This document shows positions 16,503 through 20,100 of a stretch of 64,000 nucleotides of DNA, piece after piece (the stretch's first letter is position 1; every line of letters begins with the position of its first letter). Location of the stretch: positions 864,001 to 928,000 of the forward strand of contig CAXXVZ010000005.1 of assembly GCA_963678065.2 (NCBI GenBank), in the 5' to 3' direction. The position numbers and the translations under genes are program-made. The stretch is from Treponemataceae bacterium (GTDB lineage Bacteria; Spirochaetota; Spirochaetia; Treponematales; Rectinemataceae). A model generated the notes under the pieces. The model saw only the letters and a program-made list of their open reading frames with translations. It did not search any database and had not been told where the DNA came from.

Positions 16503-17039
16503 TGTTATCTGCTTTGTTTTTGGGGCTCATCCATTTTCTTCTCTTCATTTAAAAACTTTTCTTTCTTACTTCTTCAATCTTGCCCTTATATCCTATATTT
16601 ATATACTTTATACAGATATCGAATATTTTAATTATCTATATTATAGTTATTTAGTAGTTTTTCTCATCAAATATTTTATTATTATATTTTAAGTCCATGA
16701 TTTTATGTAACAAGTATATATTACAGTATTAGCCAATACTATAAATTTCAATATTTATAATTTTCACCCAACAAAAAGATCAGCTTTGAAAGGTCCTTGT
16801 CTTCTCCTGGAATCCCATATTCAAGAATCCCATATTCAAGAATCCCATATTCAAGAATCCCATATTCAAGATTTTTAACTTCATGATCCCTAACATTTCA
16901 GAAACTATATATTTTCCCAAGAGATTAATACTGTATTAACAAAATATCTGGAATCTATGATTCTAGTTTTTAACAATTTGTCGTCATTCAGAATAACAAG
17001 GTTCAACAAAAGATCCGCCCCAAAAATATTGCAGATAAC
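16503..17039 (-). other. Long gene-less cassette, family L2
   Basis: ~535 bp AT-rich stretch with no credible ORF. Confidence 0.7.
16810..16869. repeat. Tandem repeat, 4 x 15 bp GAATCCCATATTCAA
   Basis: Four perfect copies read directly. Confidence 0.95.
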
Positions 17040-17290
17040 GTTTCCGGCCTGCGACGTTTTGTCCCGCATCGGCGGGACAAAATGTGCCTGAATGAAACGA
17101 GCGCATGCGAGTGCAATGAAGGCCGAAGAAGGAGCCACAGGCGACTGATGAGCGTGGGCAGTGCTGTTAGTTGCAGTCGTGACCTTCAAGCGCGCTTGGA
17201 TGGGGAGACTTGTCTCTCCATCCAATACTCTATCTTGCGCGCGTTCTTCTCTTCCTCTTTTCTTACCCTTATTTTTTCTTTCACGATTGC
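17033..17290 (-). repeat. SNC, 1 copy with a non-cognate attC
   Basis: SNC body at 17175-17288, but its attC is of the general subtype. Confidence 0.85.
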
Positions 17291-17424
17291 AACTAACGTA
17301 TGCCTGCCTACGACGTTTTGGCCCGCATCGGCGGGACAAAATGTGCTTGAGCGAAACGAGCGAATGCGAGTGAAGTGAAAGCCGAAGAAGGAGCCGAAGG
17401 CGACTGATGAGCGTGGGCAGCGCT

Positions 17425-17562
17425 GTTATATGCTGTCGCGATCTTGGTTTAGCGCACTGAAAGATGGTGGCTGGATGCCACCATTTTTCAAGGAACATCC
17501 TGTGCGCGTTCTTTCTTTATCTCCTCTTCACTTTAGATACATTCCTCGCGATTGCATATAAC
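17425..17562 (-). other. Diverged small gene-less cassette, structural homolog of SNC
   Basis: Same order of stems, 11 nt linker and pyrimidine tract as SNC, with a different sequence. Confidence 0.8.
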
Positions 17563-17811
17563 GTTCTGCCTGTTTGCGACGATGGCGCGAGCATCGGCGA
17601 GCGCCATTGTGCCTGAGCGGAATGAGCAAAGCGAGTGCAGCGATGGCCGAAGAGGGAGCCTGCGACCGATGAGCGTGAACAGCGCTGTTAGTTGCAGTCG
17701 TGACCTTCGAGCGCGCTTGGATGGGGAGACTTGTCTCCCCATCCAATACTATATCTTGCGCGCGTTCTTCTCTTCCTCTTCTCTTACCCTTATTTTTTCT
17801 TTCACGATTGC
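17556..17811 (-). repeat. SNC, 1 copy
   Basis: Same unit. Confidence 0.9.
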
Positions 17812-18373
17812 AACTAACGTATGCCTGCCTACGACGTTGTGGCGAGCATCGGCGAGCCACAATGTGCCTGAGCGGAATGAGCGCATGCGAGTGGAGTGAA
17901 GGCCGAAGAAGGAGCCGAAGGCGACTGATGAGCGTGGGCAGTGCTGTTAGGCGTAGTTATTTCCATCTTCATTCATTTATTCTACCCTATTCAATTCTCT
18001 TTTATCACGATTTTGAAATATTCTATCAGTGACAATACATCAGGTACAGAGAATACTGCCTTCTCTATTCTATTGTTCCTCGGATCTATTTCATATCCGT
18101 GGGCTTTATAAAATGATGCTTTTCGTAGATCTGCATTATGAAAAAGCGTTGTTCGGAAAAAGCTTCCTGTAAAGTCGGATTCAACAAGATAAGTATTCTG
18201 AAACGCACAATCTACTAGTTCACAGTGTACGAATTTACTTTTTTTCATTGATACATCAGTAAAGTTACAGGCAACTATCCTACATTCATCGAAATCCATA
18301 TCAAATGTTGTTTGATCACAATAGTAATAGTTTATACCTAATACTTTACTTTTAACAAACCTTACCCCTATAA

Positions 18374-20100
18374 CCTGGATTCCCGGGAATTTATACCCAC
18401 AATTCAATAAAGCATTGTAATTACAGTAAATAATTGGTGACAGCAATCTAAATGGGGTATAATATATACCCCATGGAGGATTGTATGCCACAAGGAACAC
18501 AAGTCATCCATGGTGTTGAATATGTTTACGAATATGATTCAAAGCGAATCGCTGAAAAGAACTACAACACGCACAAAAGACACTACATCGGGAAAATGGT
18601 AGATGGTATCTTTGTTCCCACTAAAAACTACCAACTTCAGCAAGCACTCGAGCGGGCAACGTCAATTTCTCCTGGCCCTGTTTCTTCGGTGCTTCATACC
18701 CGAAACTTTTTCGGAGCAACCTATCTGTTTGATGCAATCGGAGAAAAGCTGGGGATAACTGGTGATCTCTGTGTTTGTTTTCCTGATCTCTGGAAACAGA
18801 TACTCTCTATTGCATACTTTTTGATTCTGGAAGACAGGAACTCCATAAGCCGTTTCCCGCGATGGGCTGTACATCATGCGCACCCCTATGGGAACTCGAT
18901 ACCCTCCCAAAGGTCCAGCGAGTTATTCGCCTGTATTGATGAGGACGCCAGGCGACGGTTTTTTCTCAAGCAGGCAAATCGAAGACTCGAGACTGAATAT
19001 CTTGCCTACGATATCACTTCTATTTCTTCGTATTCTCGACTGCTTTCCCAGGTTCGCTATGGCAGGAATAAGGATCATGATCCTTTACCCCAAATCAATT
19101 TGGCGATGCTCTACGGTGATACTTCAAGACTACCGGTTTATTATCGTACATTGCCCGGTAACATCGCCGATGTCACGACGATTCGTACGCTCCTTACTGA
19201 CATTGATCTTCTCAAGCTGGGCAAAGTCAAGTTGGTTTTGGATCGAGGGTTCTACAGCGAAGAGAATATCAACACCCTGTACCATCATCACTATAAGTTC
19301 CTGATAGCAGTTCCAAAGCACTTACGGTTGATTCAGGATGTCCTTGATGATGTTCGAATGTCTATGCGCACGAGAGCCTGTTACTCAAGCCGGTACAGGA
19401 TCAATACATACTCACGGACTATCGAATGGTCATACCATCATCGAAAACCTCGTTCAGGGGATCTGGATGAAGGATCAAGGAGGCTGTATCTCCATCTGTT
19501 CTTCAATGACCAACGGGCAGTGGATGATAAGGCTGCGTTCAATACCCTTTTAGACACGCTTGAAACGGAACTGTATTCCGGAAAACTTGATCCTGAACAT
19601 GAAAAGCTCTATCGGAAATATTTCGAGTACGCTGCAACGCCTGTTCGCGGCATGCAGGTAACACCAATTCAATCTTCAATCGACGAAGCTGAAAAAAACT
19701 ACGGCTATTTTGCTCTCATATCGAATGACATAAAGGATCCTTTGGAAGCGCTTAGAATTTATCGATCTAAGGATCTGATTGAAAAGGCTTTCGGAAATCT
19801 CAAAGAGCGGCTTAACCTGCGCAGAACATCGGTGTCTTCAGAAGAAAACCTCGAGGGCAAGCTCTTTGTCCAATTCATCGCGCTTATGTATCTCTCATAC
19901 ATCGATAAGATGATGGATGAACAGAATCTATATAAGGACTATACGTTACACGAACTTCTTGATGAACTCGATGTGATTGAATGTTTTGGCCATCCTGGTC
20001 GTAGACTTCAAATCGGTGAAATCACTAAGAAACAAACTGAGCTATTTACGAAGTTAGACGTTCCCGTTCCTCTTGGGGTATAAATTCATGGGAATTCAGG
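18374..20100 (+). mobile_element. IS1634-family insertion sequence
   Basis: Left IR CCTGGATTCCCGGGAATTTATACCC, right IR GGGTATAAATTCATGGGAATTCAGG; 6 bp TSD CTATAA at 18368-18373 and 20101-20106. Confidence 0.9.
18485..20083 (+). CDS. IS1634-family DDE transposase
   Basis: YDITSISSYS, YGRNKD, LVLDRGFYS, YRSKDLIEKAF; GGAGG RBS before ATG 18485. Confidence 0.9.
   Translation: MPQGTQVIHGVEYVYEYDSKRIAEKNYNTHKRHYIGKMVDGIFVPTKNYQLQQALERATSISPGPVSSVLHTRNFFGATYLFDAIGEKLGITGDLCVCFPDLWKQILSIAYFLILEDRNSISRFPRWAVHHAHPYGNSIPSQRSSELFACIDEDARRRFFLKQANRRLETEYLAYDITSISSYSRLLSQVRYGRNKDHDPLPQINLAMLYGDTSRLPVYYRTLPGNIADVTTIRTLLTDIDLLKLGKVKLVLDRGFYSEENINTLYHHHYKFLIAVPKHLRLIQDVLDDVRMSMRTRACYSSRYRINTYSRTIEWSYHHRKPRSGDLDEGSRRLYLHLFFNDQRAVDDKAAFNTLLDTLETELYSGKLDPEHEKLYRKYFEYAATPVRGMQVTPIQSSIDEAEKNYGYFALISNDIKDPLEALRIYRSKDLIEKAFGNLKERLNLRRTSVSSEENLEGKLFVQFIALMYLSYIDKMMDEQNLYKDYTLHELLDELDVIECFGHPGRRLQIGEITKKQTELFTKLDVPVPLGV

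Follow-up and report, generated by a model that had tools for sequence, protein, structure and literature searches.

The unit at positions 17425-17562 of the window (the whole analysed stretch of 64,000 nucleotides, G000:C5:864001-928000) is best explained as part of a gene-less cassette that occurs in three types with one predicted fold, is built of the end signals of its array and, in a reading to which we give about an even chance, folds as bottom-strand single-stranded DNA and travels as a passenger of the array's recombinase. The unit is a real and well-defined feature, if a less special one than the preliminary description had taken it for. Gene-less repeated cassettes are already known; it is one fold kept in three types for which we found no description in the open-access literature searched. 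The reason for which such cassettes accumulate in large arrays, be they selfish or useful, has been a question since 2006 (PMC1382264). Recent work answers "promoters", whereas the fold family offers a different answer and a compact test, with three natural versions and separable parts, and reveals the parts that are left in cassettes of this integrase class once the gene is gone.

The array and the type-2 cassette

The array comprises 178 attC-like sites, all on one strand, in direct orientation (C5:754-932 kb), and ends at attI beside a tyrosine recombinase (C5:931895-933073) that runs in the same direction as the cassette genes. This shared direction makes the minus strand the top strand and the + strand the integron bottom strand, as had been proposed from the window; the same reversed integrase orientation is reported for Treponema arrays with promoter cassettes (PMC6557892). 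The direct array, the GTT/AAC cores, an attI beside a tyrosine recombinase and the bottom-strand bias are all shared with the canonical integron (IntI, attI, attC). In contrast, the recombinase and VchIntIA (PDB 2a3v) align as two blocks, and a stretch that measures 52 residues in 2a3v measures 6 in the recombinase. On TIGR02249 the recombinase scores 197 bits, below the integron-integrase cut-off of 265, and its N-terminal part includes a HARP-like piece (24.8 bits, just under the Pfam cut-off of 25). Because the integron-specific insertion (I2) is absent from it, we did not file the unit as a canonical integron cassette. The type-2 unit nevertheless lies within this direct array with its attI and recombinase, and is bounded by GTT and AAC cores (9 of 9 pairs) that agree with GTTRRRY / RYYYAAC, the four bases after GTT fitting the consensus loosely. 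Skew is weak in this genome (G000) and does not give the direction of replication. Judging by its 16S, we take the host for a spirochaete. Elsewhere in the window, we noted a 543-codon ORF on the + strand (18452-20083), transposase-like by eye and inserted in a cassette against the array direction, and about four 14-base units in tandem (16816-16871) inside a short cassette of a repeated 500-720-base family.

As parsed from the array and folded as a circle, the whole gene-less type-2 cassette spans 17297-17561 (265 bp; top strand minus) and consists of the 138-base body and its own attC-like site (17294-17428, + strand), of a subtype present in all three type-2 copies and on 4 gene cassettes. 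Read on the + strand, the body starts with a left terminal arm (17425-17441) made of the 9-bp core, a T.T mismatch, a G.T wobble and a 6-bp arm, and finishes with the right terminal arm (17546-17562), the outer arms being 17435-17441 and 17546-17552. Between them lie the left arm of a clamp (17452-17457), which pairs with the right clamp arm (17502-17507) and shows one compensatory change relative to types 1 and 3; a 14-bp hairpin (17458-17490) with the loop TGGAT (17472-17476) and one G.T pair; an 11-base bulge or linker (17491-17501) that ends in ATCYT and is 13 bases long in type 3; and a 38-base pyrimidine tract (17508-17545). Stems, 5-base loop and linker were all found where the preliminary description had put them. 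It had also called the mismatches G-T wobbles, and two G.T pairs are indeed real (17435.17552 and 17463.17485), but a T.T mismatch (17434/17553) adjoins the first. The cassette adjoins the body of a type-1 (SNC) copy at 17166-17297 (+), and a second type-1 body lies at 17687-17818 (+), preceded by an attC site of the SNC-private subtype (17559-17690).

Whether modelled as RNA or as DNA, the body folds on either strand with a z of about -7, a level reached by none of 200 shuffles. Outside the array, the combination of clamp, 13-15-bp hairpin and bulge has a single occurrence in 10.2 million bases (both strands), in a scan whose strand count is one-sided by construction and was left out of the argument. 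A peptide-coding role was rejected: no ORF is conserved, the longest closed ORF in the type-2 cassette has 43 codons (no ORF over 150 bp, the limit of Boucher 2006), and type-1 lengths of 128-135 break any reading frame. A 197-codon frame from 17498 spans three repeats and was taken as spurious. Two further candidates were set aside: a mini-hairpin inside the 11-base linker, which varies in 2 of 3 type-2 copies, and insertions at the loose ends at 17439/17440 (runs X3 and X5), which fall at a GATC site and resemble proximity-ligation junctions.

Copies, covariation and the origin of the pairing

A model built from 9 sequences detected 56 copies in the genome: 52 of type 1 (SNC), 3 of type 2 (C5:816638, 841252 and 881425) and one of type 3 (C5:804589; L084:1090-1227), which adjoins a type-1 copy. 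The type-2 cassette, at first described as a singleton, is thus single only within the window, and its sequence is also present in contigs of runs X3, X5 and X6. The gene-less fold family makes up 56 of 173 parsed cassettes, a third of the array and about sevenfold above any gene cassette family, the next largest cassette family having 7 copies; by this count it is highly paralogous. Copies are spread evenly over the thirds of the array (18/57, 21/58 and 17/58), with 19 adjacent pairs against 17.8 expected. Tandem amplification was rejected as the main route of copying. The first cassette at attI is a type-1 copy, and 49 of the 52 type-1 copies carry a private attC subtype. First place at attI, even spread, private attC and sevenfold excess fit repeated insertion at one site.

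The three types are 57-68% alike and have identical stem lengths of 6, 6 and 14. Across the 9 sequences, 16 of 36 pairs have changed on both sides (10/14 in the hairpin, 1/6 in the clamp and 5/16 in the outer stem), and 99.7% of alignment cells pair, which none of 500 shuffles reached in a control that ignores relatedness. Three lineages underlie this covariation, together with one compensatory change inside type 2. The third type keeps the fold as well, and the proposal that compensatory changes maintain it is supported. The broader proposal, that shape and not sequence is under selection, applies to the hairpin, whose arms are the most divergent part between types (5-8 of 14 identical), but not to the unpaired tract (24/32 to 31/32 identical, among the least divergent parts) or the clamp (5-6 of 6). 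Sequence therefore matters outside the hairpin.

Among imperfect SNC hairpins, 36 of 37 carry G.T in the sense of the + strand, in agreement with the earlier view that wobbles favour that strand. An uncorrected G.T is kept by 36/52 type-1 and 3/3 type-2 copies, while one type-1 copy has A.C; counted as events, type-1 hairpins show three kinds of G.T against one of A.C. The excess of G.T over A.C could have another source in a C-to-T bias on the exposed strand.

The pairing could also be a by-product of template switching that copies arm onto arm, the unit being a relic of fused cassette ends with an unselected inner fold. The hairpin arms change fastest, and 5 adjacent changes form a block when types 1 and 3 are compared; this suits template switching, which gives block changes and can produce multi-base compensatory changes (PMC8794818). 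Since the ends of every cassette are self-complementary and arbitrary, there may be a process that copies arms. The right clamp arm and its flanks also look like a gene-cassette right end joined to a left end, and there are only three lineages. We nonetheless consider this origin unlikely in view of the identical stem lengths at 57-68% likeness, the G.T pairs left uncorrected and the recurrence of comparable hairpins in other genomes, described below.

Generic and family-specific parts of the unit

Comparison with the other cassettes of the array separated generic from specific elements. Almost all cassettes in G000:C5:754807-931314 bear self-pairing ends of their own, 20-22 bases long, in which position 11 is a fixed G.T and TCT comes just inside both arms. 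In a set of 88 distinct ends, a few of them from broken bodies, 73-85 are paired at any one of positions 12-20, and G.T stands at position 11 in 75. The outer stem and its G.T are thus not special but common to almost all cassettes, coding ones too. TCT lies at most 6 bases inside the left arm in 42/76 gene cassettes and inside the right arm in 41/76, against a background of 10% (3 of 79 gene cassettes were dropped for short arms), and a pyrimidine tract follows the left arm in 34/79, the tracts of all three types scoring like such trailers and that of the type-2 unit resembling them in composition. Outer stem, TCT motifs and tract are generic array-end signals, and half of the "fold" is generic.

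By place and loop, the 14-bp hairpin is one of a class of GA-loop hairpins that lie close to the ends of cassettes in related arrays. At the left end and on the bottom strand, these were present in 7/79 gene cassettes of the same genome (mid-gene controls 3/79), 12/17 cassettes of relatives (controls 0/16), 4/4 short cassettes of the distant spirochaete G566 and 2/3 fold-family types; on the top strand there were none in any cassette set compared. The loop is a 3-base GGA in 13 of 25 left-end GA-loop hairpins. GGA-loop hairpins of 13-14 bp recur in G566 and G032, and a G032 example of 14 bp places its loop at position 48, where the type-2 unit has it at 49. In a subclass of gene cassettes, the bottom strand carries two GA-loop hairpins, one towards either end; the subclass is a minority in G000 (C5:799406, 845021, 860109, 861113, 895658, 900274, 905451 and 930247) and a majority in relatives (L085, L086, L088 and L077).

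Such hairpins might act as single-strand initiation signals, by which an excised circle would be primed and copied, leading to amplification. GNA mini-hairpins occur at primase sites (the G4 origin, ssiA) and in the N4 single-stranded DNA promoter (PMC13037366), and related end hairpins carry GNA-type loops. Yet the most amplified type has no GGA loop and the same hairpin class sits on single-copy gene cassettes; we judge priming very unlikely. The type-2 loop, TGGAT, is not the 3-base, C-G-closed GNA loop of a DNA mini-hairpin.

Three parts are specific to the fold family: its clamp, a bulge of 11-13 bases and an end arm of 6 bp. Gene-cassette arms have a median of 10 bp, none of 95 long bodies has 4-6 bp, and 15 break within 2 bases. 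An end arm of exactly 6 bp was found in 11 of 12 short gene-less bodies of G566, and also in one G566 gene cassette. These 12 bodies, with ORFs of at most 44 codons, form several families, mostly have their own attC subtype and lack the clamp; the first five lie next to attI. The G566 array (L123:8029-18599) is dominated by gene-less cassettes of 147-150, 176, 250 and 313 bases, and part of it is inverted between 12260 and 15473. By eye, type 3 resembles the 148-base G566 family in 15 of 16 bases at its clamp. Homology of the two is not claimed, as covariance model R1 matched only the ends and tract.

A more far-reaching idea, which we hold to be doubtful, is that the units are empty products or minimal substrates of a cassette-making machinery, that the ends, TCT, trailer and GGA-loop hairpin would form a single-stranded DNA code read by the HARP-like domain or a primase, and that a 6-bp rather than 10-bp arm would mark a self-amplifying class across spirochaete arrays. 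If true, a 265-base unit would make cassette genesis directly testable.

The fold family is so far confined to one organism, and the further homologs that the preliminary description had called for were not found outside it. Model R1 had matches in 0/68 family, 0/150 order and 0/150 phylum genomes (overlapping samples of mostly fragmented genomes with often unassembled arrays, 22-150 candidates scored per genome), and gave one weak partial match (E 0.15) in 5 chosen genomes. A metagenome pattern scan returned three matches, a near-identical type 1 (L093), one without a cassette (L092) and a short cassette without the hairpin (L094); both matches of the GTDB pattern scan lacked the hairpin. An order-wide scan for the inner pattern hit 114/401 genomes; the hits were scattered and about as frequent as with the reversed control, and among the matches listed the hairpin was absent outside G000. 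The attC motif was found in none of the viral contigs, and blastn against plasmids and phages gave short chance matches only. Metagenome contig L094, which is AT-rich and unrelated, shows the same end grammar in its short cassettes at 227-356 and 647-838. A cassette of a different family in G121 (L086:5996-6294; 299 bases) has a long internal stem (z -8.5), a 10-bp end arm, no ORF over 60 codons and no Rfam match, and a similar start is seen in L074 (G028).

Single-stranded DNA, RNA and promoter readings

Canonical integrons recombine the bottom strand in its folded form, with excision of cassettes and their re-insertion at attI (PMC11023631, PMC5371416, PMC3458562); by analogy, the same route may well operate here. 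In the passenger reading, the recombinase would excise the unit as a single-stranded circle, on the assumption of a single-strand route; the ends of the unit would pair and extend the attC stem; clamp and hairpin, one stacked on the other, could form a 20-bp helix, which would hold the circle compact or be recognised by a protein; and re-insertion at attI would yield more copies, with no benefit to the host. Folded as circles, all three types are 7-11 kcal/mol better on the bottom strand (-50 to -53 kcal/mol) than on the top strand (-42 to -45 kcal/mol). In protein-free minimum-energy folds of 32 of 163 sites (8 per class, distant arms lying outside the folded window), the attC core was unpaired at 16/16 sampled sites beside one unit, against 4/8 between gene cassettes and 2/8 between two units, so that the unit is predicted to close on itself. 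Host functions gave no signal in our searches, with no promoter consensus, Rfam match or conserved ORF, and no CsrA in G000. In favour of the passenger reading, the 3-base GGA loop form of related end hairpins is far more stable in DNA than in RNA (PMC13037366). The reading also has points against it: none of types 1-3 has a stable DNA triloop (type 1 has a TT loop, types 2 and 3 have 5-base loops), the insertion with which canonical integrases handle folded attC is missing from the recombinase, and for ordinary cassettes recombination goes on in the absence of clamp and bulge.

A role in RNA, which the preliminary description had offered alongside single-stranded DNA on the + strand, is rather unlikely; the single-stranded DNA half of that proposal is the likelier one, and nothing that we found favours RNA over it. 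The fold would act in antisense (+) RNA, as a small RNA or as a terminator-like insulator, its GC clamp running into a tail rich in U and C, against antisense transcription in the array. The G.T bias toward the + strand fits G.U. Of the 8 bases after the clamp, 5-6 are T in types 1 and 2 but only 4 in type 3, and a terminator scan found none at the unit. The tract is rich in C and T and poor in G, and the genome contains a Rho-like motif; the same tract, however, follows the left end of 34/79 gene cassettes. No match reached the gathering score in Rfam 15, GNRA and UNCG loops are absent, and no promoter consensus reached 9/12 in or beside the 7 copies tested. Type-1 pieces do occur in contigs of two RNA runs from one study, but these contigs are strandless and a 52-copy repeat is what appears first under DNA carry-over; positions 17436-17501 of type 2 are uncovered in the same two RNA runs, an observation from contigs only that carries no weight, and runs X7 and X14 contributed no alignment. 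A CsrA sponge or CsrA-binding small RNA was rejected, with one GGA loop and PF02599 not found in G000. The RNA-encoding gene-less cassette sRNA-Xcc1 of Xanthomonas (cited in PMC6557892 and PMC8876359) is a precedent, also gene-less and with a possible RNA, whereas for the fold family we found neither a match in Rfam nor a promoter consensus, nor any sign of a discrete RNA.

The closest likeness of the fold family is to the paralogous non-coding cassettes of Vibrio (PMC1382264), which likewise have no ORF over 150 bp, are highly paralogous, with 45 copies in V. vulnificus CMCP6, and have no homolog outside the host group. No conserved fold is reported for these in the excerpts of that source, whereas here a single build is common to three diverged types, pairing of the ends extends over 17 bases, and the integron insertion is absent from the recombinase. 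Excerpts of PMC8876359, PMC3607928 and PMC11511950 describe no such fold, and the build with clamp and hairpin is not described in the open-access literature searched.

A promoter cassette of the kind found in the arrays of Vibrio and oral Treponema is in our view highly improbable. Most gene-less cassettes tested in those arrays were promoters and they too are gene-less units in long arrays (PMC11014356, PMC6557892), whereas the body here is short and mostly paired, with no sigma-70 match of 9/12 on either strand of 7 copies with flanks and no hexamers conserved from type to type (for other sigma factors, the sequences were inspected by eye only). A 9/12 match is present in 26/79 gene-cassette leaders, 4 of which reach 11-12/12. 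The gene cassettes at G000:C5:754807, 787204, 848532 and 863221 have their own near-perfect sigma-70 promoters (11-12 of 12).
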